Part shown: one piece after another, positions 1-62,540 of the stretch
Numbering within the stretch: the first letter of the stretch is position 1
Layout of the letters: every line of letters begins with the position of its first letter
NCBI GenBank assembly: GCA_017431625.1
Contig: JAFRKQ010000015.1
Location: forward strand, 17,608 to 81,607
From: a bacterium
GTDB lineage: Bacteria > Patescibacteriota > Microgenomatia > UBA1400 > PJMF01
Direction of reading: 5' to 3'
Length of the DNA stretch: 64,000 bases
The notes under the pieces: model-generated
The model's database searches: none
Seen by the model: only the letters and a program-made list of their open reading frames with translations
What the model was told of the DNA's origin: nothing
Position numbers and translations under genes: made by a program

Positions 1-194
1 TGATGGGCATTCGTCCCACTGTTCGTGGTACGGCTCAGCACCCTGGTTCACATCCACATGGTGGTGGTGAAGGTCGTAGTGGCATTGGTTTGTCGCACCC
101 GAAGACTCCATGGGGTAAGCCCGCCTTGGGTCACAAGACTCGCAAACAGTCAAAGAAAAATAAGATGATTGTCAAAGATAGAAGGATGAAGTAA
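1..194 (+). CDS. rplB: 50S ribosomal protein L2, C-terminal fragment (gene starts upstream of window)
   Basis: ORF 3..194 ...[34 protein letters not shown] is the conserved uL2 C-terminus; stop TAA 192-194 overlaps rpsS ATG. Confidence 0.85.
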
Positions 195-478
195 TGAGTA
201 GAAGCGCAAAAAAAGGTCCCTACGTGGACGAGAAACTATTAGCTAAAGTGATGGCACAAAAAGCGAGTGGATCGAAGAGTTCGATTAAGACTTGGGCTCG
301 TGCTTGTGTGGTGGCTCCAGAATTTATTGGTCACACTTTCAGTGTCCATCAGGGTAAGAAGTTTGTGGAAGTGTATGTCACGGAGACAATGGTCGGTCAC
401 AAACTGGGTGAATTTGCTCCCACCAGGACTTTCAAAGGTCATGGTCGGATTGTGAAACGTGTCTTGACTAAGACTTGA
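194..478 (+). CDS. rpsS: 30S ribosomal protein S19
   Basis: 94 aa [16 protein letters not shown]...[15 protein letters not shown] typical uS19; position after L2. Confidence 0.95.
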
Positions 479-493
479 TGCTGGAGGTGGAAA

Positions 494-880
494 ATGACAA
501 CTATTATAGCAGAACAAAAAAATGTCCGTCAATCTTCACGCAAGGTACGTTTGGTAGCCAATCAAGTGAAAAAGCTTGATTTGGAGTCGGCAGTGAGACA
601 ATTGACGGTGATGGAAAAACGTAGTAGCATGGTGATTCTCAAAACTGTCAAACAGGCTTTGGCTAATGCGGTGAAAAATTCTGGTTTGGCGATTGAGGAT
701 CTGGAGTTGACTGATATTGTCGTGGCAGATGGACCGATTTTGCGTCGCATGCGAGCTGTTTCTCGCGGTCGTGGTCATGGTATTGACAAAAGGACGTGTC
801 ATGTCCGTGTGGTATTGAAAACAAAAGAGGCTGCAGTAGTGCCGGCAACGGCCGTGGCTGAGGCTAAAGGAAAGAATTAA
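494..880 (+). CDS. rplV: 50S ribosomal protein L22
   Basis: 128 aa, uL22-like (KAVAKNVRLSPRKVRLVA-type N-term), conserved operon position. Confidence 0.9.
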   Translation: MTTIIAEQKNVRQSSRKVRLVANQVKKLDLESAVRQLTVMEKRSSMVILKTVKQALANAVKNSGLAIEDLELTDIVVADGPILRRMRAVSRGRGHGIDKRTCHVRVVLKTKEAAVVPATAVAEAKGKN

Positions 881-884
881 GACT

Positions 885-1538
885 ATGGGACAAAAAGTAA
901 ATCCGATTGGCTATCGAGTGGGAGTGACTCAGTCTGCTGCGTCCAAGTGGTATGCTGGTAAGGGTGAGTATGGCGCGTTGTTGTTACAAGACAAACAATT
1001 GCGTGATTTGCTCAATAAAGAGTTGGAAAGTGCAGGCTTGGTGAAAGCTGAGATCGAGCGATCAGTGAATTTGATCAAAATCACTATTAATGTTTCCAGA
1101 CCAGGTGTGGTGATTGGCCGCGGTGGCACCAGTTTAGAGCAACTCAAGAAGAAAATTGAAGTTCAGGTCAATAAGAATGCCAAAAAAGGCGAGAAAATTC
1201 GCATTGATTTGAAAGTGGAAGAGGTTAAAAAGGCTGATGCATCGGCAAAATTGGTGGCAGAGAAGATTGCTGGTCAGTTGATTAAGCGTTTCCCCCATCG
1301 CCGGGCTATCAGTCAGGCGATTGAAAAAGCGATGGCAGCCGGTGCACGTGGTATCAAAATTCAGCTCTCAGGGAGAATTGGTGGAGCAGAGATTTCTCGC
1401 AGTGAAAAGTACTTCCAGGGTAGTATTCCCACTCAAACATTGCGAGCAAATATTGATTACTATGAAATGCCTATTCACACCAAGTCAGGTTATGTTGGCA
1501 TAAAAGTATGGATACATAAAGGAACTTTGAACGCATAA
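885..1538 (+). CDS. rpsC: 30S ribosomal protein S3
   Basis: 217 aa MGQKVNPIGYRVGV... KH domain and uS3 C-domain. Confidence 0.95.
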   Translation: MGQKVNPIGYRVGVTQSAASKWYAGKGEYGALLLQDKQLRDLLNKELESAGLVKAEIERSVNLIKITINVSRPGVVIGRGGTSLEQLKKKIEVQVNKNAKKGEKIRIDLKVEEVKKADASAKLVAEKIAGQLIKRFPHRRAISQAIEKAMAAGARGIKIQLSGRIGGAEISRSEKYFQGSIPTQTLRANIDYYEMPIHTKSGYVGIKVWIHKGTLNA

Positions 1539-1555
1539 GTTTAGAGTAAAAAGCT

Positions 1556-1963
1556 ATGTTAGAACCGAAAAAACGCAAATATCGAAAATGCTTTCGCGGC
1601 AAGAATCGTGGCAAGGCACAGCGTGGGACTCAAGTAGCCTTTGGCGACTATGGTCTCAAGGCTTTAGAACATGGCTTGTTGACTGATCGCGAGATTGAAG
1701 CCGCGCGTAAAAAAATTACTTTTGCCACCAAAAAAGTTGGTAAGTATTGGTTTCGGGTCTTTCCCCACAAACCGGTGACCAAAAAGCCTGTCGGAGTCAA
1801 GATGGGTAGCGGCAAGGGTGATATTGATCACTATGTGGCGGTAGTTAAGCCAGGCATGATTCTTTTTGAGATTGGTGGAGTGGATATTGCTACTGCCAAG
1901 AGTGCTTTTAGTAAAGCTGGACATAAGTTATCCGTCAAAACGGCGTTAGTGAGCAAGGATTAA
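1556..1963 (+). CDS. rplP: 50S ribosomal protein L16
   Basis: 135 aa MLEPKKRKYRKCFRGKNRG... uL16. Confidence 0.95.
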   Translation: MLEPKKRKYRKCFRGKNRGKAQRGTQVAFGDYGLKALEHGLLTDREIEAARKKITFATKKVGKYWFRVFPHKPVTKKPVGVKMGSGKGDIDHYVAVVKPGMILFEIGGVDIATAKSAFSKAGHKLSVKTALVSKD

Positions 1964-1964
1964 C

Positions 1965-2183
1965 ATGAAAAAAACACAAATGCGCCAATGGCGTGAAAAA
2001 GATAATCAACAGGTAGAGGCAGAATTGAAGACTTTGTCGGCTAAGTTGACGAGTGCCTATCTGACCAAGAGTGCCGGTAAATTGCAGAATGTAGCTATGA
2101 TTAAAAACATCCGGCGCGATATCGCTTGGCTCAAAACAATCATGGGCGAGCGCGCTGAACAACCAGTAGTAAGTGAAAGTTAA
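1965..2183 (+). CDS. rpmC: 50S ribosomal protein L29
   Basis: 72 aa helical protein between L16 and S17. Confidence 0.85.
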   Translation: MKKTQMRQWREKDNQQVEAELKTLSAKLTSAYLTKSAGKLQNVAMIKNIRRDIAWLKTIMGERAEQPVVSES

Positions 2184-2185
2184 AC

Positions 2186-2437
2186 ATGAAAAGTCTTACG
2201 GGAAAAGTGGTTTCACTTAAGAATCAGCAGACAGCGGTGGTGGAAGTGGAAAATCATTTCCAACATCCGCTTTATAAAAAGTATTTGACACGTACCAAAA
2301 AGTACGCCTGTCAGCTTGATGAGGGGGTGTCTTTAACTCTTGGTCAGGAAGTAGAAATTGTCTCTTGTCGACCAATTAGCAAAACCAAGCACTTCCGTGT
2401 TCAAATGCAGACAGCTAATGGCAGAAGGGAAAAATAA
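2186..2437 (+). CDS. rpsQ: 30S ribosomal protein S17
   Basis: 83 aa ...[14 protein letters not shown]... uS17. Confidence 0.9.
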
Positions 2438-2439
2438 TT

Positions 2440-2814
2440 ATGATACAGTTGCGATCAGTGCTTGATGTCGCTGATAATAGCGGCGCAAAACAAATTCGGG
2501 TCATCCAAGTTCATGGAGGTTCCAAACGTCGTTACGGTTATGTTGGTGACGTGGTGGCCGCTTCGGTCATTAAGGCTGATCCCAATGGTACCGTTAAAAA
2601 AGGTGAAAAGGTGAAAGCAGTGATAGTTCGGACTAAAAAGGAATTTCGCCGTAGCGGTGGTGAGTATGTCCGTTTTGGTGATAATGCAGCTGTTATTATT
2701 ACTGCTCGAGAAAATCTCGATCCCATTGGTACTCGTGTTTTTGGGCCAGTGGCGCGTGAAGTTAAAAATGCTGGCTTTACCAAGATTGCTAATTTAGCGC
2801 CAGAAGTTTTGTAA
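2440..2814 (+). CDS. rplN: 50S ribosomal protein L14
   Basis: 124 aa [17 protein letters not shown]... uL14. Confidence 0.95.
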
Positions 2815-2827
2815 GTGGAGGTGAGCA

Positions 2828-3136
2828 ATGAAATTCAGAGTTAATGACCAAGTAATCATCACCAGCGGTAAAGACAAAGGACGCAAATCAAAAATTATTC
2901 AAGTTTTGCCCGCTAAAGATCAGGTGGTAGTGGAAGGAGTGAATATGTACACTCGCCATATCCGCAAGATGATGGGGCGTCCTGGTGAAAAAATCAGACG
3001 GGAGCGTCCCCTCTCGACGGCCAAGATTGCGATTATTAATGACAAAGGTCAAGCGGATCGTATTGGCTTTGTAGTTGACAATGGGACGAAAAAACGTATC
3101 TATAAGAAGACGAAAACAGTGATGACAGAGAGTTAA
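2828..3136 (+). CDS. rplX: 50S ribosomal protein L24
   Basis: 102 aa MKFRVNDQVIITSGKDKGRKSKI KOW motif. Confidence 0.9.
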   Translation: MKFRVNDQVIITSGKDKGRKSKIIQVLPAKDQVVVEGVNMYTRHIRKMMGRPGEKIRRERPLSTAKIAIINDKGQADRIGFVVDNGTKKRIYKKTKTVMTES

Positions 3137-3137
3137 T

Positions 3138-3686
3138 ATGAATCGATTAAAACAACGCTACAATGATGAAGTCATTCCGCAACTCCAAAAGGAGTTGGGT
3201 GTGTCAAGTAAGTTTGAGGTGCCGGCTTTGAAGAAGGTGGTGCTTAATATGGGAGTGTCAGATCCAGCCGATCCTAGAGAACGACGTCGGGCTTTGGAAA
3301 ACATCAGCAGTCAAATCGCTTTGATTACAGGCCAAAAACCACAAGTAACGGTGGCTAAGAAAGCGATTTCCAATTTTAAGTTGCGTGCCGGTGATCCCAT
3401 GGGTGTGATGGTGACCTTGCGTGGCGAGCGTATGTGGCAATTTGTTGATAAGCTCATCGCTATTGTTTTACCTCGGGTCAAAGATTTCCGTGGCGTGAGT
3501 CGCACCGCTTTCGATGGTCATGGCAACTATTCGTTGGGGATTGAAGAGCAGATTATTTTCCCTGAGATTGAATATGATAAAATTGAACGCATCCGGGGTT
3601 TACAATTAAATTTTGTCACCAACAGCAATGATAAAGATGCTTATCGTATGTTGGAATTATTAGGTATGCCTTTTGCGAAGGAATAA
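3138..3686 (+). CDS. rplE: 50S ribosomal protein L5
   Basis: 182 aa uL5 (YNDEV...ALENISSQIALITGQKP). Confidence 0.95.
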   Translation: MNRLKQRYNDEVIPQLQKELGVSSKFEVPALKKVVLNMGVSDPADPRERRRALENISSQIALITGQKPQVTVAKKAISNFKLRAGDPMGVMVTLRGERMWQFVDKLIAIVLPRVKDFRGVSRTAFDGHGNYSLGIEEQIIFPEIEYDKIERIRGLQLNFVTNSNDKDAYRMLELLGMPFAKE

Positions 3687-3704
3687 CGAGACGAAGGAAT
3701 CACT

Positions 3705-3935
3705 ATGGCTAAAGTTTCTAAAATCGAAAAAAACAAGAAACTCGCGCGCAAGCAAGCGCATTATCGGAGTTTGGGGGTGAAAAAACCCAACAAGGTGGCC
3801 AATCGTGTCGTTAATCGTTGCAGTTTAACTGGCCGACCCCATGGTTATATGCGCTATTTCGGTTTGTCACGTTTGACTTTCCGTGAATTGGCCAATCGAG
3901 GTGAGCTTCCAGGTGTAGTGAAAGCTAGTAAGTAA
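3705..3935 (+). CDS. rpsN: 30S ribosomal protein S14 (short form, single Cys, no Zn knuckle)
   Basis: 76 aa [12 protein letters not shown]...[19 protein letters not shown] uS14. Confidence 0.85.
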
Positions 3936-3946
3936 GGATTTTGATT

Positions 3947-4339
3947 ATGACAGATACCATTGCAGACATGCTGATTAGAATAAAGAATGCTTACTTGGCT
4001 AATAAGGATCAGGTGCAATTGCCGGCATCGAAAAAGCTGGAAGCGGTTGCGAATGTTTTGCGCGAAGCAGGCTATTTGTCAGAGGTGAAAGTAGTCACCA
4101 ATGATAAAAATCAGCGCAATCTTGAGCTAAGTCTTCTCTACTCTGGGGTGACGCCGGCGCTCACTGACGTGAAGCGGGTGTCCAAGCCTGGTTGCCGTGT
4201 ATATGTGACTGTTGGGGAGATTCCGGCGGTACTACATGGCTACGGCCTAGCAATTTTGTCTACCAGTGAAGGGATTCTATCGGGAGCTGCGGCCAAACAA
4301 AAGGGTGTCGGTGGCGAGCTTTTAGCTGAAGTATGGTAA
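3947..4339 (+). CDS. rpsH: 30S ribosomal protein S8
   Basis: MTDTIADMLIRIKNA... uS8; ATG 3947 preferred over upstream TTG because of SD TAAGGA spacing. Confidence 0.9.
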   Translation: MTDTIADMLIRIKNAYLANKDQVQLPASKKLEAVANVLREAGYLSEVKVVTNDKNQRNLELSLLYSGVTPALTDVKRVSKPGCRVYVTVGEIPAVLHGYGLAILSTSEGILSGAAAKQKGVGGELLAEVW

Positions 4340-4364
4340 GACTGTAAGGACAGAAAGACAGTGT

Positions 4365-4904
4365 ATGGCAAAAATAACAAATAAACCAATAATGATACCG
4401 TCCGGAGTTACGGCGAGCGTAGAAAATGGTGAGGTGACGATCAAAGGTGCCAAGGGGCAACTGAAGGTCCAGCTTTTGCCAAACATTGACGTGGAGATTG
4501 ACGGTGATAAGTTGATTGTCCATCAAGGCAGTCAAGAAAAACAAACTAAAGCTTTTGTTGGCCTCATTAAAGCCTTGGTCCGTAATGCCATTGCCGGAGT
4601 AACCACTGGTTTTAGCAAAACGCTTAAGCTGGTCGGTACTGGTTACCGGGTACAGGCTCAGGGCAAAGGGATAAGTCTGGCGGTGGGTTTTTCTCACACA
4701 GTGGAGTTTATGCCTCCTGAGGGTGTTGAGCTCAAAGTGGAGGGTCAAGATACTATCATCGTCAGTGGCTTTGACAAACAACAAGTAGGACAGGTAGCAG
4801 CTAATATCCGCAAAGTACGACCACCAGAACCTTATAAAGGTAAAGGTATTCGCTACGTTGATGAGGTCGTCCGTCGTAAGCAGGGTAAGACAGCCGCGAA
4901 GTAA
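4365..4904 (+). CDS. rplF: 50S ribosomal protein L6
   Basis: 179 aa uL6 two-domain protein. Confidence 0.9.
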   Translation: MAKITNKPIMIPSGVTASVENGEVTIKGAKGQLKVQLLPNIDVEIDGDKLIVHQGSQEKQTKAFVGLIKALVRNAIAGVTTGFSKTLKLVGTGYRVQAQGKGISLAVGFSHTVEFMPPEGVELKVEGQDTIIVSGFDKQQVGQVAANIRKVRPPEPYKGKGIRYVDEVVRRKQGKTAAK

Positions 4905-4912
4905 GGATCAAG

Positions 4913-5281
4913 ATGACAACAGTTGCACATAATTTATCCAATAGACAACGTCGACTCAAAAGAATGCATCGTCGCGTCAAAGCGATAGCGAGTCGGCCAA
5001 AACTCGTGATCACGCGCACCAATCGCTATATAGATCTGCAAGTGATCGGTGAAAATGGCTATGTCCAAGCGAGTGAAAGTGACATCGCTTTGGTCAAAGC
5101 TGGTCAGCTGGATCGTTCACTCACTAAAACCGAGCGGGCGGCGGCTACGGGTAAAGCATTGGCGGCCAAACTTCAGGAGAAAAATATCAAGTGCTTGGCA
5201 GTAGATCGCGGTGCGTACAAATTTCATGGTCGAATAAAGGCCGCAGTAGAAGCAATCAGAGAAAATGGAATTGAGGCGTAA
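4913..5281 (+). CDS. rplR: 50S ribosomal protein L18
   Basis: 122 aa uL18. Confidence 0.85.
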   Translation: MTTVAHNLSNRQRRLKRMHRRVKAIASRPKLVITRTNRYIDLQVIGENGYVQASESDIALVKAGQLDRSLTKTERAAATGKALAAKLQEKNIKCLAVDRGAYKFHGRIKAAVEAIRENGIEA

Positions 5282-5282
5282 A

Positions 5283-6065
5283 ATGGCATTGACTAATAAT
5301 AATACGAATAACAGTCGTTCTCAAGAGGCGAGTGTTGCTGAAGAAAAAAAGTACGAAGAAAAGGTCGTCCAGGTATCGCGTGTGTCCAAAAAGACCAAGG
5401 GCGGTAATCAATTTGGTTTCTCGATCCTAGTTGTGGTCGGCGATAAGAAGGGACGAGTGGGTGTCGGTTTGGGCAAAGGCAAAGATGTCTTGTCCTCGAT
5501 CAAAAAAGCCGTCAAGAAAGCACGTAAAAATATGATCAGTGTGCCAATGGATGGTACTACTATCCCCTTTCCTGTGCGGGTTAAAAAAGGCGCGGCCAAG
5601 GTTTTGCTCAAACCCGCTCCCAAGGGTTCGGGCGTTATTGCTGGTGGTGCTGTCCGTAGTGTAGTGGAAGCGGCTGGCATTCGTGATCTTTCGGCGAAAA
5701 TTTTGGGCACCAATAATCAAGCCAGTAATGTTTATGCCACCTTTACGGCGCTCAAACAAATGGAAAAAATGGTAGAACTTAAGGGTATTAAACTGAAGTC
5801 CATTGTGGAAATCGAAGCTGAAGAAGCGAAGAAATTTGAGGAAGAAGCAGCCAAGGCAAAAGCAGCCGAAAAAGGCAAGCAAGAAGCTTCAAAAAAGAAT
5901 CTTAAGAACGGTCGCAGTGGTGATAAAGCCAAAAAGCCTGTCAAAGATAGTAAAGATAAAAAGGGTGCTAAGTCAGCTGCTGTCAAAAAAGCTGCTAAGC
6001 CAGCGGCTAAATCAGCTCCCAGCAAGGGTGAGCAAGCGACACCCGCAGCCGAGTCGACCAAGTAG
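5283..6065 (+). CDS. rpsE: 30S ribosomal protein S5 with ~95 aa Lys/Ala/Glu-rich C-terminal extension
   Basis: uS5 core (VSRVSKKTKGG..FGFSILVVVGD...GIRDLSAKILG) then low-complexity tail KKFEEEAAKAKAAEKGK...AAKSAPSKG; ATG 5283 directly after rplR stop. Confidence 0.9.
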   Translation: MALTNNNTNNSRSQEASVAEEKKYEEKVVQVSRVSKKTKGGNQFGFSILVVVGDKKGRVGVGLGKGKDVLSSIKKAVKKARKNMISVPMDGTTIPFPVRVKKGAAKVLLKPAPKGSGVIAGGAVRSVVEAAGIRDLSAKILGTNNQASNVYATFTALKQMEKMVELKGIKLKSIVEIEAEEAKKFEEEAAKAKAAEKGKQEASKKNLKNGRSGDKAKKPVKDSKDKKGAKSAAVKKAAKPAAKSAPSKGEQATPAAESTK

Positions 6066-6088: not shown

Positions 6089-6523
6089 ATGTCAATTTTA
6101 AATCAGAATATCGATATCAGTAATAAGTCTAAAAAACGGCTTGGCCGTGGTTATGGTAGCGGCAAAGGCAAGACCGTTGGTCGCGGTACCAAAGGCTCGG
6201 GGGCGCGCAAAAGTCCTCACATGGCACCTATTTTTGAAGGCGGTCAGTTGCCACTCACCAAACGTTTGCCGATGATCCGTGGTAAATCGCGTTTTCAATC
6301 ATTTGCCAAAGTCGGTGAGGTCAATGTCGGTGATTTAGCCAAGCTAGACGCTGAGCTTATTAGTCTAGAAACACTCAAGCTTGCCGGTTTGGTGGATAAG
6401 CGGGTAAAAGCCGCAAAAGTGATTAACACTGGTAGCTTGGATAAAGCCGTTAAACTCCAAGGATTGCGCGTTTCGGCTGGAGCCAAAAAAGCCATTGAAG
6501 CTGCTGGCGGTAGCGTGGTTTAA
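6089..6523 (+). CDS. rplO: 50S ribosomal protein L15 (uL30 gene absent between rpsE and rplO)
   Basis: 144 aa ...KKRLGRGYGSGKGKTVGRGTKG uL15. Confidence 0.9.
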   Translation: MSILNQNIDISNKSKKRLGRGYGSGKGKTVGRGTKGSGARKSPHMAPIFEGGQLPLTKRLPMIRGKSRFQSFAKVGEVNVGDLAKLDAELISLETLKLAGLVDKRVKAAKVINTGSLDKAVKLQGLRVSAGAKKAIEAAGGSVV

Positions 6524-6543
6524 GACCTGATTGTGTGGATATT

Positions 6544-6575
6544 AAAACTCCCAACTTGATGGTTGGGAGTTTTTG
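6544..6575 (+). terminator. Rho-independent terminator ending the ribosomal protein operon
   Basis: AAAACTCCCAAC ttgatg GTTGGGAG + TTTTT. Confidence 0.75.
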
Positions 6576-6599
6576 GTGGTTGGCCAAAATGATAATTGC

Positions 6600-6608
6600 T
6601 GTTATAAT
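6600..6608 (+). promoter_or_regulatory. Extended -10 (TGtTATAAT) for leaderless rmuC
   Basis: TGnTATAAT with ATG 6615 six nt downstream. Confidence 0.5.
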
Positions 6609-6614
6609 ATGAAT

Positions 6615-7697
6615 ATGGAAATAACTATTTTGGTTTTGTTGATTTTGGTGATAGTTTTGCTGCTGCTCAATTTGCTTTTGACCTATGCTCTCAAGATGCG
6701 ACAACCGGACTTGGAAAAAACGCTTTCGCGCCAGCGCCGGGAGTTGACCCTCACACTTGAGTCTTTCGGTCAAGGCCAGGAACGTCAACTTCAGCATCTA
6801 ACAGCGATGACCGAAAAACGTCTTGAGTCCATGCGTCAAACTGTGGATGAAAAACTACAAACTTCTCTGGAACGCCGACTCAATGATTCTTTTCGCCAGG
6901 TATCTGAGCGGCTGGAAATGGTTTATAAAGGTTTGGGTGAAATGCAGACGCTGGCGGCCGGTGTCGGTGATCTCAAGAAAGTACTTACCAATGTCAAGGT
7001 CCGGGGTACGTGGGGTGAAGTCCAACTGGGCAATTTGTTGTCGCAGTTTTTGGCGCAAAGCGACTATACCGAAAACGTGGCTACCGTCCCTGGTAGTAGC
7101 AATCGGGTGGAATTTGCGATCAAACTTCCGAGCAAAAATAATGATCAAGACAATGTTTTATTACCTATTGATGCGAAATTTCCCTTAGAAGATTTTGAGC
7201 GTTTGCAATTGGCACAAGAGCAAGCTGACAAAAGTTTGATTGACATTGAGTCCAAGGCTTTGTATACGCGTTTGAAAAAATGCGCCAAAGATATTCACGA
7301 TAAGTACTTGTCGCCACCGAAGACCACAGATTTTGCGATTATGTATTTGCCGCTTGAAGGTCTGTATGCCCAAGTGAGTCAAAATGTCGCTTTGTGTCGT
7401 CAACTCCAACAAGATTATCGGGTGACTGTCATGGGACCCAATACCATTGCTGCTTTTTTGAATAGCCTTCAGTTGGGTTTTCGCACATTAACGATTGAAA
7501 AGCGCTCAGCCCAAGTGTGGCAGCTTTTGGGCGAGATCCAAACTGAGTTTGCTAAATTTGGACTCATTTTGCAAAAAACGCAAAAGAAATTGCAAGAAGC
7601 CAGCAACATCATCAGCGAGGCTCAAAGCAAATCAACCACAATTAATCGCAAACTTCAAAGTGTGGAAAATCGTGATTTACTCCAAGAGCCTGTGTAA
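6615..7697 (+). CDS. rmuC: DNA recombination protein RmuC
   Basis: N-terminal TM then coiled coil and RGTWGEVQL / IDAKFPLEDFERL motifs of the RmuC family. Confidence 0.8.
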   Translation: MEITILVLLILVIVLLLLNLLLTYALKMRQPDLEKTLSRQRRELTLTLESFGQGQERQLQHLTAMTEKRLESMRQTVDEKLQTSLERRLNDSFRQVSERLEMVYKGLGEMQTLAAGVGDLKKVLTNVKVRGTWGEVQLGNLLSQFLAQSDYTENVATVPGSSNRVEFAIKLPSKNNDQDNVLLPIDAKFPLEDFERLQLAQEQADKSLIDIESKALYTRLKKCAKDIHDKYLSPPKTTDFAIMYLPLEGLYAQVSQNVALCRQLQQDYRVTVMGPNTIAAFLNSLQLGFRTLTIEKRSAQVWQLLGEIQTEFAKFGLILQKTQKKLQEASNIISEAQSKSTTINRKLQSVENRDLLQEPV

Positions 7698-7790
7698 CAA
7701 AAATGCCATTTTTGTCACAAAAAACCAGATATGCGCGTTTAACACGCGTTTAACAAAAATGCGAAATTGTACATATTTTGTCTACATGTA
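7698..7790. repeat. Repeat element X (contains tandem GCGTTTAACA x2), copy 1
   Basis: ~85% identical to the reverse complement of 22826-22920. Confidence 0.6.
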
Positions 7791-7796
7791 AAAAAT

Positions 7797-7843
7797 GCCG
7801 AGCTCCGCGCGGAGCTCGGCAGTCCGCAGTTATTCGGTAAACT
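7797..7843. repeat. GC-rich palindromic element (family Z), short inverted copy; terminator-like after rmuC
   Basis: Perfect palindrome GCCGAGCTCCGCGCGGAGCTCGGC; its reverse complement aligns with 18307-18384 with an internal deletion. Confidence 0.6.
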
Positions 7844-7875
7844 CAAATTGATGAAAAACTTTTAGCAGCGAACCC

Positions 7876-8010
7876 GAAACAAATATTTAAGCTGGCTCAA
7901 ACAGCTCGCCCAGCAAATATTTAGCCGGGCGCTCAAACAGCGGCTCGCATGACATGGACGTCACGGCTCGCCAAACTCGCGCCAACGGCAAAAATATTTG
8001 CTATGGGCTC
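7876..8010. repeat. Repeat element Y (degenerate ~30-nt tandem units CAAATATTTAGCnGGnCTCAAACAGC...), copy 1
   Basis: Shares a 25-nt exact block AAATATTTAGCCGGGCGCTCAAACA and ~80% identity over ~105 nt with 22672-22790. Confidence 0.6.
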
Positions 8011-8077
8011 GCTGTTTGTAGAGTCTTAATGGCGACATTAGCATTTCATTAAAAATGAGACACTGTCTATTGATTTT

Positions 8078-8914
8078 TCAGCTATTCGGTTGATGCTCAG
8101 TTTTGAAAATAAGTAAGTGAGCTTTTGGTGGTGAACAAAAACGAAAATACGGCAACTCGTTGCCGATGCCCGGCGAGACGAGCATCCGCGCTTGTGGGGT
8201 TTGGACTAGGCCGACTTGGTAGTCGTAGGCCGCAATGCGATGAGGCACAAAAGGCTGGTAACGAAAAAAAGTAATTTGCGAGCCGTGTGTGTGGCCGGCG
8301 AGAACAAAATTGACACCGTCTTGGGGAGTCAATCTGTCAATAAAATTTGGTTGGTGTGATAATAGAATTGTAAAAGTTTTTTTGTCAGTGTGCTCATGTG
8401 CGAGCGCGAAATCAGGATGGCCAAACCACATGTCCCCCACTCCATCAAGACGGATCTGGGCTGAACCACGCTCAAGGGTGACGCCTTGATTGTGAAGCAG
8501 CCTTATACCGGCTCTTTGAAGTTGCTGGCGATTAAAGTCAATGCTAAAATCATAATCATGATTGCCCAAAACGGCATAACAACCCAAACTGGGCGGACGG
8601 ATTTTTTGCAAGATCCCCAAAAGTTCAATGTAGTCGCTCACGAGTTTTTGATGGGAGCGATATTTGGTCAAATAATCACCGCCAAAAAGTACCAAGTCAG
8701 GTTGGAGGCGATTGATTTTGCTGACCATGCGGCGGAGTCTGCTGACGTTGGAAAAGGGACCATGATGAATATCACTGACAAAAACCACTCGCAAATTGTG
8801 AAACTCAGCTGGTAATTGCTGGTCACGGATGATAGTCCGCTCAAAACCAAGCGACAGCGTTTCGGTGGCGATATAAGATGCGAGTAAACCGGTAAAAGCC
8901 AAGCCAGGTGTCAT
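8078..8914 (-). CDS. Calcineurin-like metallophosphoesterase (YkuE-like)
   Basis: VSDIHHG...GDY...GNHDY...GHTHG metallophosphatase motifs. Confidence 0.75.
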   Translation of the reverse strand: MTPGLAFTGLLASYIATETLSLGFERTIIRDQQLPAEFHNLRVVFVSDIHHGPFSNVSRLRRMVSKINRLQPDLVLFGGDYLTKYRSHQKLVSDYIELLGILQKIRPPSLGCYAVLGNHDYDFSIDFNRQQLQRAGIRLLHNQGVTLERGSAQIRLDGVGDMWFGHPDFALAHEHTDKKTFTILLSHQPNFIDRLTPQDGVNFVLAGHTHGSQITFFRYQPFVPHRIAAYDYQVGLVQTPQARMLVSPGIGNELPYFRFCSPPKAHLLIFKTEHQPNS

Positions 8915-10654: not shown

Positions 10655-10800
10655 ATATGGTGATTTAGATATTATAGGATGTTTACGCATTATAGGATAA
10701 AATTTTCCAGGTATGAAAACTAAAAATTATCCTATAATATAATATTCTGATTAAAATTAGTCTGGAGTTTCTTTTATATTATAGGATTAAAAATGCTAAT
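10655..10800. repeat. ATTATAGGAT/ATCCTATAAT box repeat element, copy 1
   Basis: ATTATAGGAT-N30(TTCCAGG)-ATCCTATAAT-N40(GTCTGGAG)-ATTATAGGAT; same architecture at 42575-42730, 50985-51150, 62415-62540. Confidence 0.7.
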
Positions 10801-10831
10801 TTCAAGTGCTAAGCGCCAGATGCTCTTTTTG

Positions 10832-10840
10832 TGATATAAT
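10832..10840 (+). promoter_or_regulatory. Extended -10 (TGaTATAAT) for RNase P RNA
   Basis: 7 nt upstream of the predicted P1 5' strand. Confidence 0.5.
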
Positions 10841-10846
10841 ACACCC

Positions 10847-11106
10847 ACGGTAAGGCGACTCCAGGACAACCGCCGGTATCGGTCAAGATACTGGAGGAAA
10901 GTCTGGACAGCGCAAGAGAGGCTAGGTACAGAGTCACAGAGACGAGCCGTTTGAGTACGGGTGCAACGAGATAATCCCTAGCTGCTGCAACCGCCAGGTT
11001 TGACCTTAATGGACCTCTTGCCTATCATGGTCATGATCCCGCGGGCATTAGATAGATGGTTGTCAACCAAACAGAATCCAGCTTACTCGGAGCCGACCTT
11101 GCCGTC
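10847..11106 (+). ncRNA. rnpB: RNase P RNA (bacterial type, reduced ~260 nt)
   Basis: P4 strands GGAAAGTCTGGAC (10895-10907) and ACAGAATCCAGCTTA (11071-11085), matching the universal GGAAAGUCCGG / ACAGAAxCCGGCUUA with compensatory CCGG->CTGG/CCAG changes; P1 CGGTAAGG/CCTTGCCG and P2 CGACTCC/GGAGCCG pairings. Confidence 0.55.
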
Positions 11107-18306: not shown

Positions 18307-18384
18307 TTACCGAAACACTCGCGACTGCCGAGCTGTGCACACAGCTGTGCAGTCGTGTGCGGAGCTCCGCGCGGAGCTCCGCAC
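18307..18384. repeat. GC-rich palindromic element (family Z), full copy; bidirectional terminator between convergent genes
   Basis: TTACCGAAACACTC...GCTGTGCACACAGC...GTGCGGAGCTCCGCGCGGAGCTCCGCAC. Confidence 0.65.
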
Positions 18385-22463: not shown

Positions 22464-22537
22464 GGTCGCATGGCTCAGTTGGTTAGAGCGTTCGATTCAC
22501 ATTCGAGAGGTCCTAGGTTCGAATCCTAGTGCGACCA
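22464..22537 (+). tRNA. tRNA-Val (anticodon CAC)
   Basis: Cloverleaf: acceptor GGTCGCA/TGCGACC, D GCTC/GAGC, anticodon loop TTCACAT, T arm CTAGG-TTCGAAT-CCTAG; no encoded CCA. Confidence 0.9.
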
Positions 22538-22671
22538 CAGTTTTATTTTTTTTGGGTTAAAAACTCATTTGGGAATTATTGTAGTTTGTTATCAAATAAT
22601 CACTGCCGAGTTTTGTACACGTTGATACAGTTTGTGTTGACAGATAAAACGTACCATGCTAACGCCGCTCA

Positions 22672-22790
22672 CCCGGACAAATATTTAGCCGGGCGCTCAA
22701 ACAATGACTGCGCGTGCTCGCCTTCGGCGCCACGCTCGTCAAACTCGCGCCAGCGGTCAAAACATTTGCTTCGGGCTCACAGCTTATATT
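22672..22790. repeat. Repeat element Y, copy 2
   Basis: See 7876-8010. Confidence 0.6.
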
Positions 22791-22825
22791 TTTTCATCAT
22801 TTAAATAATAGATAAAATGTGTACA

Positions 22826-22920
22826 ATTTAAGCATTTTGTTAAACACGTGTTAAACGCTCACATCTGGTTTTTAGTGACAGAAATGGTGTTTTTGTAAAA
22901 TCAATGGCAACGCATTTTCA
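22826..22920. repeat. Repeat element X, copy 2 (inverted)
   Basis: Reverse complement ~85% identical to 7698-7790 incl. G(C/T)GTTTAACA x2. Confidence 0.6.
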
Positions 22921-22988
22921 TTGACCTTGGTTTAGTTAGCGATTGACAGTCGGCATTTTTTTTGATATAAAATATTGTTAGAGGCTAA

Positions 22989-23138
22989 ATGAAAGGCATT
23001 ATGCGCGTGGAAACACAAGTGGTTAATTTTACAATTTCTCGTCCACGTATCAGTAAAGTCTATCCCCTACCCGTCAATGCCAAAGTCGTAATTCCTCGTT
23101 TTAAAACCCTCCTTAAAACTAAAACCGATAAAAAATAA
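22989..23138 (+). CDS. Possible small basic protein (49 aa) in a 660-bp non-coding stretch
   Basis: ATG with SD AGAGG 6 nt upstream; MKGIMRVETQVVNFTISRPRISKVYPLPVNAKVVIPRFKTLLKTKTDKK; below ORF-track cutoff, no homology recognised. Confidence 0.25.
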   Translation: MKGIMRVETQVVNFTISRPRISKVYPLPVNAKVVIPRFKTLLKTKTDKK

Positions 23139-23200
23139 TTATTTTTTAACTTTTAATTTGCTTGCTCAGTCAAGAGTTTTATCGTGTATAATATGAGCAT

Positions 23201-40356: not shown

Positions 40357-41661
40357 TTAGTAGGCTTCATCATTATAGCGTGAGTTGATACCCCAATCAC
40401 TGATTTTGGCAACACCATGTCCAGTGTGACCAACACCCAAGGGATATTGATCTCCGTTGGGAGTTGGCATACGCTCTTGCTGGCGTCGTTGATTGTCCCA
40501 CGCATAGCCTTCACCGTCAATCATGGTGGTAGACTCAAAGTGGTAACCGGTGGGCGACAAGCTGCACTCCACACTAGGAGTTTTAGTCAGACAATCGGGA
40601 TCATTTTGACTGGCGACACCTACACAACCAGCGTGCCCAGCAATGTAAGATGAACCACCACCGCCAGTGCCGACGTAGTTGGTAACACTACCACCAGCTT
40701 CCCCACCATACCAACCGCCACCACCGCCGCTGCCATAACTAGGTGCACTACCGCCTTGGCCAAAAGCACTCCGACGCCAGAAATCGCCCGCAGTGACTTC
40801 ACTGGTTACTTGTGTTCCGCCTGCTCGATTGATGTAATCGGGAGACTCGTCACCACAAAAAGCAAAATTTGTATTAGTGCCAGAATAACCAACAAGTCCA
40901 CCGGCACTACCACCTTTGGCACGACAACCAGCATAATTGAGCGCGCCACCGCCACCACCGGCAACCATAATCCGACTGCTGAGGGAACCGGTATCGTACC
41001 ATTCTCCTTTGATCAGGCGAATATCAGTGGCACCGCCACCACCGCTTCCCCAAGAGGATGGGGCTACGCCACCAGCGCCGCCGGCATTAAATGCTGCTGT
41101 TTTTTCGCCGTTGCCCACAACATGTTCGCCGACATAAACATAAACGATCGTGTCATTGTCAACAGTGAGTATCCCCGCGGTATAAGCTCCACAGCCACCG
41201 TCATTGTGCTGTTCGTCAATATTGCCACCTTGGGCACCCCAAAGTTCAACATAATACGTGTGATTGGCCTTGAGTGTCACCGTCTGCACTGCTCCTGTAT
41301 AAGTAAAAATCTTGCTACCATGCTCTGCTATTGTTTGTTCTTGGGTGTCGGTAACGACTATGCTATTATTGTCAGGCGGAATTTCCCAGTCAATCTTATT
41401 ATCTATAGCAACGTGACTTGGTGATGAGGGTGCGGGTGTGGGTAATGGTTGACCATCGTCGTTTTGGCTTGCAATATTCAAGAAACTGTCTTGAGAAGTC
41501 GATCTGGGTGTTTGATAGGTAGTAATTGCAGCGGCACCAACCAAAGTGACAATGACGATAAAAACACCAATGGTAACAATCGTGCTAGTGTCATCACTGT
41601 TAGGTTGGTATTTTGAAGCGGTATTATTGCTAGTATTGAGATTTTCTTCTTGACTGGACAT
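40357..41661 (-). CDS. Membrane-anchored glycine-rich-domain surface protein
   Basis: N-terminal TM IVTIGVFIVIVTLVGAAAI, then YVELWGAQGG...GGGGA...GGSAGGLVGY...GGGGGWYGGEAGG repeats reminiscent of the ALK-type Gly_rich domain; own promoter TTGACA-17-TATAGT. Confidence 0.6.
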   Translation of the reverse strand: MSSQEENLNTSNNTASKYQPNSDDTSTIVTIGVFIVIVTLVGAAAITTYQTPRSTSQDSFLNIASQNDDGQPLPTPAPSSPSHVAIDNKIDWEIPPDNNSIVVTDTQEQTIAEHGSKIFTYTGAVQTVTLKANHTYYVELWGAQGGNIDEQHNDGGCGAYTAGILTVDNDTIVYVYVGEHVVGNGEKTAAFNAGGAGGVAPSSWGSGGGGATDIRLIKGEWYDTGSLSSRIMVAGGGGGALNYAGCRAKGGSAGGLVGYSGTNTNFAFCGDESPDYINRAGGTQVTSEVTAGDFWRRSAFGQGGSAPSYGSGGGGGWYGGEAGGSVTNYVGTGGGGSSYIAGHAGCVGVASQNDPDCLTKTPSVECSLSPTGYHFESTTMIDGEGYAWDNQRRQQERMPTPNGDQYPLGVGHTGHGVAKISDWGINSRYNDEAY

Positions 41662-42574: not shown

Positions 42575-42730
42575 AAAAAATTGTCTATTTTAGTGAATTA
42601 TCCTATAATTTATGAGATTGTCCAGACTAATTTAAAACGGAATAATATATTATAGGATAAATAGTAACTTTTTTGCCTGGAAAAATATGGCAAAACTTGG
42701 TTAAAATCCTATAATAATTAAAAATTATGG
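42575..42730. repeat. ATTATAGGAT/ATCCTATAAT box repeat element, copy 2
   Basis: ATCCTATAAT-N40(GTCCAGAC)-ATTATAGGAT-N47(GCCTGGAAAAA)-ATCCTATAAT. Confidence 0.7.
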
Positions 42731-48151: not shown

Positions 48152-48227
48152 ACCGAAACACTGAGGACTGCATAGCTCCGCACACATCTCGGCAGTCGCT
48201 TACACAGCTCCGCGCCGAGCTCGGCAG
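48151..48227. repeat. GC-rich palindromic element (family Z) copy; terminator-like after GT2 gene
   Basis: AACCGAAACACT...CAGCTCCGCGCCGAGCTCGGCAG. Confidence 0.6.
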
Positions 48228-50984: not shown

Positions 50985-51150
50985 TTCGGGTGTTATTTAT
51001 ATTATAAGTCCGAAACTTTTAATATTATAGGATTTTAAGCCATTATAGCTCATAATTTCCAGGCGAAAATTTGCTGAAAGTCCTATAAGATATTTTTACG
51101 TTCGGAAAAAGTCTGGATGATTATTAATATTATAGGATATATTTGTATAC
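50985..51150. repeat. ATTATAGGAT/ATCCTATAAT box repeat element, copy 3
   Basis: ATTATAGGAT...TTCCAGGCGAAAAT...GTCCTATAAG...AGTCTGGAT...ATTATAGGAT. Confidence 0.65.
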
Positions 51151-51247
51151 ATTTTGTCTACACTTATTCCATAAGCACATGCTGAGCTGCCGGCAAAAAA
51201 ATACCCCGACGGTGTCGAGGTATTTAGGGTTGGCTAGGAGACTGTCT

Positions 51248-59525: not shown

Positions 59526-59964
59526 TAGTTTTTATGGTGAAGTCCTAACGGAACATTATTTGTATCCGCGACACCAGCGGCAATTGGCGACTTATGATCG
59601 ACGCCAAGTGGGTGTGAATGCGAGTTGTGGTGATAGTTTGGAACTGCAAATTAAATTTGCCGGTGATCGAATTCAGGATTTGGCTTTTAGTGGTCAGGGG
59701 TGTGCGCTCTCGCGAGCCAGTAGTGACATTGTCTGTGGACTTTTGCAAGGACGCAGTCTGAGTGAAGCCCAAAAAATCATTGTCGCTTTTGATCAATTGG
59801 CGGCGGGTCAGGCCCATGAAGAACAAAAACAATTACTTGGTGAAGCGGTAAGTTTGGAGTCGGCGCTACAAATGCCTTTGCGGACCAAGTGTGTACAGTT
59901 GGCGTGGACACTAGCAGCTCAGTTGCTCCGGCCAATGTCTAGTGATAACAAAAACGAAACATGA
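59518..59964 (+). CDS. sufU: SufU/IscU-like Fe-S scaffold
   Basis: CGDSLELQIK...GQGCALSRASSDIVCG three-Cys scaffold; ATGA overlap with sufS. Confidence 0.8.
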   Translation: MNDSFYGEVLTEHYLYPRHQRQLATYDRRQVGVNASCGDSLELQIKFAGDRIQDLAFSGQGCALSRASSDIVCGLLQGRSLSEAQKIIVAFDQLAAGQAHEEQKQLLGEAVSLESALQMPLRTKCVQLAWTLAAQLLRPMSSDNKNET

Positions 59965-62393: not shown

Positions 62394-62414
62394 TGCTGGC
62401 TCACTAAGACTTTT

Positions 62415-62540
62415 TATCTTATAGGATTTTAACCCTTTTTTTGTCAAAATCTCCAGGCAGAAAAATTTTATTTAATCCTATAATATATGTTATCGATTTA
62501 AAACCAGGCATGAAATTAAAATTATATAGGATAATATTGT
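62415..62540. repeat. ATTATAGGAT/ATCCTATAAT box repeat element, copy 4
   Basis: TTATAGGAT-N47(CTCCAGGCAGAAAAA)-ATCCTATAAT-N36(AAACCAGGCATGAAA)-ATATAGGAT. Confidence 0.7.

Follow-up and report, generated by a model that had tools for sequence, protein, structure and literature searches.

Separable modules in two long intergenic regions of a Patescibacteria-type genome, probably mosaics of a repeat family

Two non-coding gaps in a reduced Patescibacteria-type genome are unusually long and resemble each other, which raises the question of what kind of element they share. In the window, i.e. the whole 64-kb stretch of DNA analysed here, region 1 separates the convergent genes rmuC and metallophosphoesterase, and region 2 follows tRNA-Val(CAC). 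The RmuC and metallophosphoesterase proteins of the window match NCBI MBQ6449682.1 and MBQ6449683.1, respectively. The gap sizes of 380 and ~660 bp given by the first-pass annotation are correct. That annotation described the shared sequence as a single duplicated composite module with two sub-elements, X and Y, and both are present where claimed, far beyond chance.

A repeat search of the window finds X as an inverted pair (7697-7784 versus 22896-22809, 88 nt, 84% identity), and by blastn the X copies are 86.5% identical over 89 nt (E 3e-23). The Y copies are found on the same strand with an identity of ~78-80%, with indels, and the alignments agree with the claim that X is in opposite and Y in the same orientation in the two regions. 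The exact block in Y exists, and is a 26-mer, CAAATATTTAGCCGGGCGCTCAAACA, one base longer than the 25 nt proposed. A second Y block matches between 7966-8010 and 22734-22778. In a scan for ungapped segments, none of comparable score was found in 50 shuffles, so the X/Y match extends beyond A/T runs. The local alignment of the two regions, proposed as a check, thus holds beyond low complexity, and X is kept in relatives.

The regions are not two copies of one unit, as they contain at least three separable modules, X, H and Y. The features are, in order:

7697-7786, + strand: X1, ~90 bp, A/T-rich and unstructured, beginning at the rmuC stop codon
7707-7730, + strand: Xa of X1, CATTTTTGTCAC-A-AAAAACCAGAT
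7735-7755, + strand: Xb of X1, with two GTTTAAC sites (7737-7743 and 7748-7754) whose centres are 11 bp apart
7767-7786, + strand: Xc of X1, TTGTACATATTTTGTCTACA
7796-7821, - strand: H, a 26-nt GC-rich hairpin, TGCCGAGCTCCGCGCGGAGCTCGGCA, with an 11-bp stem and the T-run TTTTTT at 7795-7790
7846-7865, + strand: short A/T-rich spacer, AATTGATGAAAAACTTTTAG; in both regions it and the X-proximal Y end are collinear with X
7866-8014, no strand assigned: Y1, ~150-bp imperfect palindrome with the 26-mer at 7914-7939
7866-7888 and ending near 8014: inverted ends of Y1, CAGCGAACCCGAAACAAATATTT and AAATATTTGCTATGGGCTCGCTG, respectively
7880-7913 and 7914-7950: 34-nt tandem duplication in Y1
22464-22538, + strand: tRNA-Val(CAC); the spacer behind it is a hot spot of variation among relatives
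22599-22663, + strand: 65-nt block upstream of Y2, with TTGACA/TTGATA -35-like hexamers and no good -10
22664-22783, no strand assigned: Y2, ~120-bp imperfect palindrome with the 26-mer at 22678-22703, followed by TTATATTTTTT on the + strand
22784-22808, - strand: Y2-X2 spacer, homologous to 7846-7865 when read from X
22809-22896, - strand: X2, inverted relative to X1, with GTTTAAC at 22850-22856 and 22839-22845 (- strand)
22944-22972, + strand: strong sigma-70-type promoter (TTGACA, 17 nt, TATAAA), serving the sORF and outside the repeats
22989-23138, + strand: 49-codon sORF adjoining X2, encoding a clade-restricted small basic protein

A 43-nt stretch, 7846-7888 versus 22802-22760 on the opposite strand, scores 20.5 when all shuffled segments stay below 14, and it runs collinear to X rather than to Y. 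Region 2 additionally contains the promoter and a real 49-codon gene.

Module X is characterised by the tandem G(C/T)GTTTAACA-C-G(C/T)GTTTAACA, located at 7735-7755 (+) and 22838-22858 (-), for which shuffles give an expectation of 0. Each of the direct repeats includes the 7-bp quasi-palindrome GTT-w-AAC, and next to the pair is an invariant box, TTTTGTCAC-N-AAAACCAG. In all six X copies the GTTwAAC sites keep a spacing of 11 bp, whether they are direct, inverted or tripled. The pair is inverted around a short central spacer in L009 (GCGTTTAAC-ATTT-GTTAAACGC), and L011 has three phased sites. At exactly this spacing two or three sites face the same side of the helix, an arrangement that fits any dimeric binder. 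The response-regulator-type site suggested earlier is for that matter not established, with the motif inverted in one relative and tripled in another. No enrichment of the GTTwAAC motif was seen outside X.

Is X conserved for its sequence? The orthologue of X1 in the sister lineage L015 (2143-2231) is 89% identical, compared with 62.5% at the third codon positions of rmuC. X2 is 95.5% identical to its counterpart in L008 and 83% to that in L016, where the Xb-Xa core reaches 90%. Third codon positions of the compared lineages are 62-68% identical and other spacers 37-57%. These comparisons indicate purifying selection on the sequence of X. The earlier idea of a conserved regulatory locus accordingly finds partial support, for X alone (83-95% against ~62-68% at synonymous positions, with no RNA fold). 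X has no stable RNA fold, and it contains only a weak inverted match of 9-10 A/T-rich nucleotides (ACAAAAATG / CATATTTTGT). We read X as a selected, DNA-level platform for putative protein binding.

X resembles arrays of operators for dimeric repressors, or the arm sites of tyrosine recombinases, in its two or three near-identical 7-9-bp quasi-palindromes at exactly 11-bp spacing, conserved across lineages without RNA structure. However, no cognate protein was found for X and no recombinase nearby, and X of region 1 and of L009 lies between convergent gene ends with nothing obvious to regulate. Two other roles for X were discarded. As a sigma-70 promoter it has at best 9/12 matches, which are not conserved between the copies; a TACAAT box is conserved on the other strand, but no -35 accompanies it consistently, and in L009 its orientation is opposite to that of the remaining X. 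As a coding sequence it has a short frame, but X2 and L008 have no start codon for it and L009 carries a frameshift.

Module H has eight GC pairs in its 11-bp stem, a 4-nt loop and then TTTTTT on the - strand (7821-7790), i.e. a GC-rich stem-loop directly before a T-run, as in an intrinsic (Rho-independent) terminator. By its sequence, H is a terminator-like site, presumably for the metallophosphoesterase/gpsA transcript. Family members are located at 18358-18383, between convergent ORFs, and at 48201-48226, between ORFs on the same strand. H is absent from the rmuC junction of L015.

Module Y is larger than the ~105 nt assigned to it before. It is an imperfect palindrome of 120-150 nt (7866-8014 and 22664-22783), with inverted ends of ~23 bp (CAGCGARCCC..ACAAATATTT / AAATATTTGC..GGGCTCGCTG) around the palindrome AAATATTT, and such ends are like the terminal inverted repeats of MITEs. 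The ~30-nt tandem units described earlier correspond to the single 34-nt tandem duplication in region 1 together with inverted copies of the 34-nt unit at the Y ends. Y1 folds at -71.6 kcal/mol on the - strand (z -5.4) and -61.7 on the + strand (z -4.6), Y2 at -60 (z -3.7) and -43.1 kcal/mol (z -1.7), respectively. Over the four folds the z scores thus span -1.7 to -5.4, with the - strand stronger. Each copy forms one long imperfect hairpin closed by the ~23-nt inverted ends, as REPINs do.

In the Y1/Y2 consensus hairpin 97.5% of the cells are paired, compared with 30-49% in slid controls, and four pairs have changed on both sides. The pairing is thus maintained by compensatory changes despite 20% divergence. 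Y2 is 95% identical to its counterpart in L008, and all six substitutions preserve pairing on the + strand, two of them via G-U. The G-U counts favour opposite strands in different Y comparisons. A coding role of Y was rejected, as the reading frames differ between the copies through indels.

The orientation of the Y core relative to X is flipped between the two copies. Compared with the unit formed by X, the spacer and the adjoining Y end, the core is inverted, and the breakpoints fall at the AAATATTT palindromes. Y1 is absent from the rmuC junction of L015, and Y from region 2 of L016, so Y is dispensable at orthologous sites. Every Y seen so far adjoins an X. The block 22599-22988 is 96% identical between the window and L008, and its first 65 nt (22599-22663) are 100% identical in this sister lineage and absent from L016. 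Outside X, the flank 22897-22943 shares 98% identity with L008 but only 37% with L016, which fits recent sharing of the block, and the 96% identity of the block is therefore not a sign of constraint on Y. A single non-coding RNA of ~390 nt over 22599-22988 was rejected, with fold z scores of -1.0 (+) and -2.4 (-) and non-X parts that are unconserved in L016.

Orthologous sites were compared in relatives. In L005, L006, L007 and L012 the convergent stop codons of rmuC and metallophosphoesterase overlap or are at most 24 nt apart, and the junction is empty. In L015 it is 140 bp long and contains X only, and in the window it is 380 bp with X, H and Y. This series, from empty to X to X+H+Y, shows a stepwise addition of modules to the spacer. 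No clean target-site duplication was found at the borders when the filled junction of the window was compared with the X-only junction of L015 and the empty ones of L005-7 and L012.

The spacer behind tRNA-Val occurs in five different states across the window and its relatives: no element (L014), unrelated cargo genes (L009), X with three phased sites (L011), H+X (L016) and Y+X (window and L008). In L009, X occupies the entire 94-nt spacer between the convergent genes RecQ and PheS, a synteny breakpoint. Presence/absence polymorphism at orthologous sites is thus observed at both the rmuC junction and the tRNA-Val spacer. X is found alone (L015, L009), with H (L016), with Y (region 2, L008) and with both (region 1), and H is found alone at 18358 and 48201. 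The X-H junction of region 1 aligns collinearly, at 84% identity, with the one behind tRNA-Val in L016. It is closer to this junction than to its own orthologue, which argues for exchange between loci. The earlier proposal of a mobile or recombining module fits these data well, since the modules are independently present or absent at orthologous sites and combined differently at the two loci.

On balance, we favour the explanation that the two regions are different mosaics of a lineage-specific family of intergenic repeats, comparable to BIME/REP, BOX or MITEs. The modules are restricted to a narrow clade of Patescibacteria-type (CPR) bacteria with small genomes. New combinations would be produced by ectopic recombination or gene conversion initiated within X copies, with adjacent modules taken along, or by mobilisation in trans, and recombination between the inverted ends of Y would flip its core. 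X would act as double-stranded DNA, where a dimeric DNA-binding protein could occupy the two GTTwAAC quasi-palindromes (three in one relative) on one helix face, beside TTTTGTCAC-N-AAAACCAG. H and Y would act once transcribed, by terminating or insulating convergent transcription and protecting 3' ends, as discussed for REP/BIME, ERIC and BOX. This terminator or insulator role of H and Y is suggested by analogy.

BIMEs are mosaics of palindromic units and extra motifs, some of which bind IHF. The enterobacterial BIME/REP elements share several properties with the modules described here: they are short, non-coding and variable in order and orientation, they are located at gene ends and between convergent genes, they place GC-rich palindromic units beside an A/T-rich module of protein-binding type, and termination and 3'-end protection have been proposed for them. 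The extragenic placement is clear for region 1 and the X of L009, between convergent stop codons, and for the H at 18358, between convergent genes, and the independent modules vary in combination, order and orientation from locus to locus as in BIME and BOX. The differences are that the sequences are dissimilar, that the copy number is apparently low here, that X is strongly conserved and overall non-palindromic, that no RAYT is known here and that the host has a reduced genome of the Patescibacteria type.

BOX elements of Streptococcus pneumoniae (boxA-boxB-boxC) are also three-part and intergenic, with a module content that varies per locus and a part with stable secondary structure. However, BOX keeps a fixed A-B-C order, while order and orientation change here, and BOX has more than 100 copies with sequences unrelated to X, H or Y. 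Y itself resembles REPINs, ERIC/IRU and Correia elements in being a 120-150-nt imperfect palindrome of two inverted units around a spacer, and it shares with REPINs and hairpin MITEs a 3' untranslated position and presence/absence polymorphism between close lineages. In contrast to these, it has no target-site duplication or fixed target, and only two copies of Y are known, both beside X. REPINs number tens to hundreds per genome; the 64-kb window has two copies of Y, and scans of sequence collections added none.

The RAYT is a single-copy gene for an IS200/IS605-like tyrosine transposase, flanked by REPs. In the ~48 window ORFs scanned with Pfam, i.e. those outside the ribosomal-protein cluster (1-6000) and up to position 59964, we found no RAYT or IS200/IS605 transposase, nor any other transposase, recombinase or integrase. 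Several observations count against mosaic repeats, including this negative result and the lack of clear target-site duplications. For a selfish miniature element, X is unusually well conserved. Further, two X and two Y within 64 kb, and a handful of copies in ~110 kb of relatives, do not establish a high-copy dispersed family. The X core, the Y 23-mer and a relaxed X pattern gave zero true matches in genome, metagenome and viral contig collections, the one viral match to the pattern being a chance match within a coding region, and blastn against phage and plasmid collections gave no match.

Two other explanations are, in our estimate, improbable to about the same degree. According to the first, this is a small-RNA or regulatory locus, with Y a structured small RNA or a cis-acting hairpin and X a promoter/operator whose tandem GTTTAACA is bound by a regulator. 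The conserved, compensated hairpin of Y, the substitutions in L008 that all keep the + strand paired, the selection on X, a T-rich run after Y2 and the TTGACA-containing block before Y2, identical in L008, would all suit such a locus. However, the orientation of Y relative to X differs between the copies, X occurs without Y at four loci (L015, L009, L011, L016), and Y is dispensable at both orthologous sites. The X copies have no conserved sigma-70-type promoter, in an organism whose own promoters are canonical. The Y of region 1 is situated between a gene end and a terminator, with no promoter ahead of it, and the strand favoured by the G-U counts changes with the comparison. In the window Rfam found only tRNAs at the gathering threshold; when both regions were scanned permissively, the matches stayed at chance level, with E of at least 0.28. 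The small-RNA locus of the first-pass annotation is for these reasons not established.

The second is site-specific recombination, in which X would hold arm- or core-type sites of a tyrosine recombinase (att-, dif- or integron-like) and Y would contain crossovers around AAATATTT, so that the modules would be scars of integration, excision or inversion, or sites where these still occur. Region 2 follows a tRNA gene behind which relatives have differing cargo genes, X marks a synteny breakpoint in L009 and has there an inverted GTTwAAC pair with a short central spacer, Y1 and Y2 have an exact 26-bp direct repeat in common, and the inversion of the Y core has its breakpoints at the AAATATTT palindromes. 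GTTTAAC/GTTAAAC would also fit the integron core consensus RYYYAAC/GTTRRRY and resemble the XerD arm of dif. Against this, no recombinase, integrase or transposase is among the Pfam-scanned ORFs, which also contain no integron intI integrase, and the Y ends lack RYYYAAC/GTTRRRY. Unlike in an integron attC site, the motif-like GTTTAAC is found in X, which is overall non-palindromic. Y has a single orientation in four independent assemblies of region 1 and in the region 2 of the sister lineage. Finally, the 15 kb between the copies are core genome, in which element-free relatives have an identical gene order. An integrated island between the copies, bounded by the 26-bp direct repeat and the inverted X 15 kb apart, was rejected because relatives lacking the elements share the order of genes on both sides of the rmuC junction.

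Less probable still, and put forward as a speculation, is that X and the 49-residue gene at the tRNA-Val locus form a self-contained DNA-binding cassette and Y is a recombination-active hairpin whose core inverts between AAATATTT palindromes, together an undescribed system that moves and flips modules without a transposase. The binder of the phased GTTwAAC sites may then be the sORF product or an unlinked clade-specific factor. Of 18 differences in the sORF, 10 fall at third codon positions, and its promoter is kept in L008 and L016. Homologues are rare, only three among 5.8 billion proteins, and L011 has an inverted copy. The protein has no match in Pfam or PHROG; its AlphaFold model is a beta-hairpin (pLDDT 74) with no match in the PDB. 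A functional partnership with X is possible. The cargo proteins that adjoin X in relatives (429 and 1536 aa) have no match in Pfam or PHROG either. Should the cassette exist, a reduced CPR genome would move and flip short regulatory or terminator modules without a resident transposase.

TIGR systems, reported in CPR genomes, have arrays of typically 5-15 units with two alternating 8-12-nt repeats, variable ~9-nt spacers and an adjacent Nop-domain protein, Tas (PMC12045711). The ~34-36-nt units of region 1, with two alternating conserved blocks of 9-10 nt, recall such an array of tandem guide RNAs (cf. PMC12045711), each ~35-nt Y unit being an edge repeat CAAATATTT, a spacer, a loop repeat CTCAAACAGC and a spacer; this is effectively refuted, as the array fails four defining features, with just two or three units, 'spacers' that are alike and conserved between loci (the exact 26-mer covers 'edge' and 'spacer' and reaches into 'loop'), no UG...CCA box motifs, and no Nop-domain (Tas) protein by Pfam within several kb of either copy or in the other scanned ORFs, besides a last unit that is inverted and creates the hairpin.

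A further shared element, 'W' (AATGGCRAC...ATTTCATT, 8031-8056 versus 22904-22925), was dropped as its local alignment score equals the shuffled mean. Sites of a replication terminus or origin were also discarded; the cumulative GC skew climbs monotonically over the window.

Small dispersed repeats are considered rare in the highly reduced genomes of symbiotic Patescibacteria, and to our knowledge none have been described; a limited literature search on such repeats in these genomes found nothing relevant. The mosaic repeats, with three states at one junction and five at another, offer a natural series for the growth and reshuffling of spacers in reduced genomes. The selected motif of ~50 bp in X, TTTTGTCAC-N-AAAACCAG ... 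GTTwAAC-N4-GTTwAAC, could serve as bait to find the putative binding protein. A modest practical value is that the repeats explain where contigs of these MAGs break and where rearrangements have their breakpoints.

The intergenic repeat modules of regions 1 and 2 of the window form a genuine set, well defined and dynamic in evolution. The convergent genes rmuC (+, ending at 7697) and a metallophosphoesterase gene (-, ending at 8078), the latter followed by gpsA, enclose region 1 (7698-8077); region 2 (22539-23200) follows tRNA-Val(CAC). The genome is compact, and the nearest named relatives of the window proteins are Patescibacteria (Saccharimonadia, Microgenomates and Paceibacterota). The features are:

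7697-7786, + strand: X1, first copy of the A/T-rich module X
7796-7821, - strand: H, a 26-nt GC-rich hairpin with a T-run
7866-8014: Y1, first copy of the imperfect palindrome Y
22664-22783: Y2, second copy of Y
22809-22896, - strand: X2, second copy of X
22944-22972: strong promoter TTGACA-17-TATAAA in region 2
22989-23138: 49-codon gene (sORF) in region 2

The first-pass annotation had described the regions as sharing X in inverted and Y in the same orientation, which we confirm. A repeat search of the window finds the X pair 7697-7784 / 22809-22896 as an inverted 88-nt match, 84% complementary, and blastn aligns 89 nt of X1 with X2 at 86.5% (E 3e-23). Chance would give 0 occurrences of the tandem motif GYGTTTAACACGYGTTTAACA, which is confined to 7735-7755 (+) and 22838-22858 (-). 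The two Y copies have the same strand, an exact 26-mer (7914-7939 = 22678-22703) and a second conserved block (7966-8010 / 22734-22778) in common; their overall identity is ~78-80%, indels present. The identity is not confined to A/T runs, because 50 shuffles gave no ungapped segment with a score comparable to the X and Y matches, and chance is excluded as the source of the repeats. Outward from X the regions stay collinear from X itself across a short spacer into the nearer end of Y (7846-7888 vs 22802-22760), with 61 extra nt, H included, in region 1. The core of Y, flanked by the AAATATTT palindromes, has in one copy the opposite orientation to X.

Comparing relatives, we show that X, H and Y are three separable modules, that they accreted stepwise at gene ends, that very close lineages combine them in different ways at two or three loci, that X is selected and that Y retains its predicted hairpin. 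Relatives for the rmuC junction were found through RmuC homologues, four of them at 77-80% protein identity; four scans of large genome and metagenome DNA collections gave no match because the organism is absent from them. Since the rmuC and metallophosphoesterase stop codons overlap or lie <=24 nt apart in four relatives (L005, L006, L007, L012), the 380-bp gap of region 1 is an insertion. The sister lineage (L015, RmuC 94%) has a 140-bp rmuC spacer with X only, lacking H and Y. The upstream neighbour of rmuC differs in every lineage (window 6089-7697; L005 5127-11074): rplO (L15) in the window, the suf operon and nifU in L005, a 7TM-transglutaminase/ATP-grasp pair in L006 and L007. PheS orientation varies among L009, L011 and L014, and gene order in this clade is by this comparison unusually fluid.

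The tRNA-Val spacer shows five states among the window and its relatives:

L014: none of the elements
L009 (4699-9897): a nucleotidyltransferase gene (Pol-beta-type) and an orphan 1536-residue ORF instead
L011 (3693-5177): X with three phased TGTTTAACAA sites, abutting an orphan 429-residue ORF
L016: H and X
Window and sister L008: Y and X

This spacer is a hot spot (L009 4699-9897; L011 3693-5177; window 22539-22598), and its first 60-113 nt are unalignable even between sisters. L009 adds a third locus: the whole 94-nt spacer of convergent RecQ and PheS, a synteny breakpoint relative to the window, is taken up by a complete X, with Xc flipped and the two GTTwAAC sites in inverted orientation (GCGTTTAAC-ATTT-GTTAAACGC). 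The X-H junction of region 1 is 84% identical to that of the L016 tRNA-Val locus, closer than to its own orthologue, which has no H. This likeness indicates exchange between loci.

Beside X2 the sORF is a real, clade-restricted gene (window 22989-23138; L008 592-741; L016 340-489; L011 4989-5177, - strand). Its product is a small basic protein of 49-62 residues with a conserved RPRxxK...IPRF, and only 3 homologues occur among 5.8 billion proteins. The gene is in every case found close to X at the tRNA-Val locus, and L011 has it inverted; structure prediction gives the product a beta-hairpin that matches no known fold.

Six aligned copies divide X into Xa (CATTTTTGTCAC-N-AAAAACCAGAT, in which TTTTGTCAC and AAAACCAG never vary), Xb (two quasi-palindromic GTT-w-AAC sites spaced exactly 11 bp) and Xc (TTGTACAnATTTTGTCTACA). 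The GTTwAAC octamer is not enriched outside X. A near-exact lone Xc copy (TTGTATACATTTTGTCTACA, 1 mismatch) at 51143-51162, directly after a ATTATAGGAT-family repeat and ahead of a terminator, suggests that Xc is a separable unit in its own right. Among three roughly equidistant lineages (window, L008/L015, L016), third codon positions are 62-68% and ordinary spacers 37-57% identical. X is 89% identical between region 1 orthologues, 95% between window and L008, and 83-84% against L016 (Xb-Xa core 90%). These values, together with the lack of stable RNA structure in X on either strand (X2 z = +0.5 and -0.2), point to constraint on the primary DNA sequence. X would serve as a platform for a putative dimeric DNA-binding protein on phased sites along one helical face. 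The block 22599-22988 is ~96% identical between window and L008; we read it as recently shared by this pair of lineages and do not take it to prove constraint on Y, because the non-X flank 22897-22943 matches L008 at 98% but L016 at only 37%, and L016 lacks the 65-nt leader and Y.

Each Y copy is predicted to fold into one extended, imperfect hairpin: on the - strand -71.6 kcal/mol, z -5.4 for Y1 and -60, z -3.7 for Y2; on the + strand -61.7, z -4.6 for Y1 and -43.1, z -1.7 for Y2. When Y1, Y2 and the L008 orthologue are taken together, 97.5% of cells pair, against 30-49% in slid controls, and 4 pairs have changed on both sides; G-U comparisons contradict each other on the transcribed strand. 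H consists of the hairpin TGCCGAGCTCCGCGCGGAGCTCGGCA and, after it on the - strand, T6 (7821-7790), the textbook shape of a putative intrinsic terminator for the metallophosphoesterase/gpsA transcript. Once transcribed, H and Y may serve to terminate, to insulate or to protect 3' ends; the genes they separate here abut directly in relatives. The small-RNA locus also proposed by the first-pass annotation is unlikely, because Y flips relative to X, four loci have X without Y, both orthologous sites can do without Y, and there is no conserved promoter. Hairpins related to H lie at 18358-18383 and 48201-48226, within a double GC-rich element (GACTGCCGAGCTGTGCACACAGCTGTGCAGTC plus H-type GAGCTCCGCGCGGAGCTC) whose copies, 18309-18383 between convergent ORFs and 48152-48226 between same-strand ORFs, are 77% identical; L005 has only a 54-nt spacer at the junction apparently corresponding to the former.

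Ectopic recombination or gene conversion starting from X could drive the shuffling, as could mobilisation in trans by a putative enzyme encoded elsewhere, and the Y core may have inverted by recombination between its inverted ends. Dedicated recombination sites would fit the tRNA hot spot, the breakpoint location of X, the inverted GTTwAAC pair in L009, the exact 26-bp direct repeat and the flipped Y core. However, Pfam finds no transposase, recombinase, Nop-domain protein or obvious transcription factor among ~48 window ORFs, core-genome content separates the two copies, and Y orientation is uniform in all independent assemblies, which leaves this reading improbable. By function and architecture the closest systems are BIME/REP mosaics, pneumococcal BOX elements and hairpin MITEs/REPINs, but with two copies each of X and Y in the window, no transposase among the ORFs scanned there and no clean target duplication, the modules are proven members of none. 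We know of no description of such intergenic repeat elements in reduced CPR genomes. The interest, which is moderate, lies mainly there and in the crisp, selected motif of X, whose putative binding partner could be found. A TIGR-like array deserves almost no credence, four defining features of such arrays (PMC12045711) being absent.

A second, unrelated dispersed intergenic repeat family of ~85-130 nt (10662-10800, 42600-42722, 51015-51138, 62409-62502) is built of multiple ATTATAGGAT / ATCCTATAAT units in both orientations; the RNase P RNA and a phosphomannose isomerase gene each have a copy upstream, and the others are near hsp20 and beside tRNA-Glu. A domain familiar chiefly from animal receptor kinases, the ALK/LTK glycine-rich domain (PF12810), has a strong match (E 2e-41) in a 434-residue protein at 40357-41661 (-). 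The default Rfam scan did not pick up the reduced bacterial RNase P RNA of ~248 nt (10854-11101, +) in the window, whose score against RF00010, 89.3 bits (E 5e-28), stays under the gathering score of 100; a promoter of its own (TGTGATATAAT) lies at ~10830-10842, and recQ, on the opposite strand, overlaps it with its 3' end.
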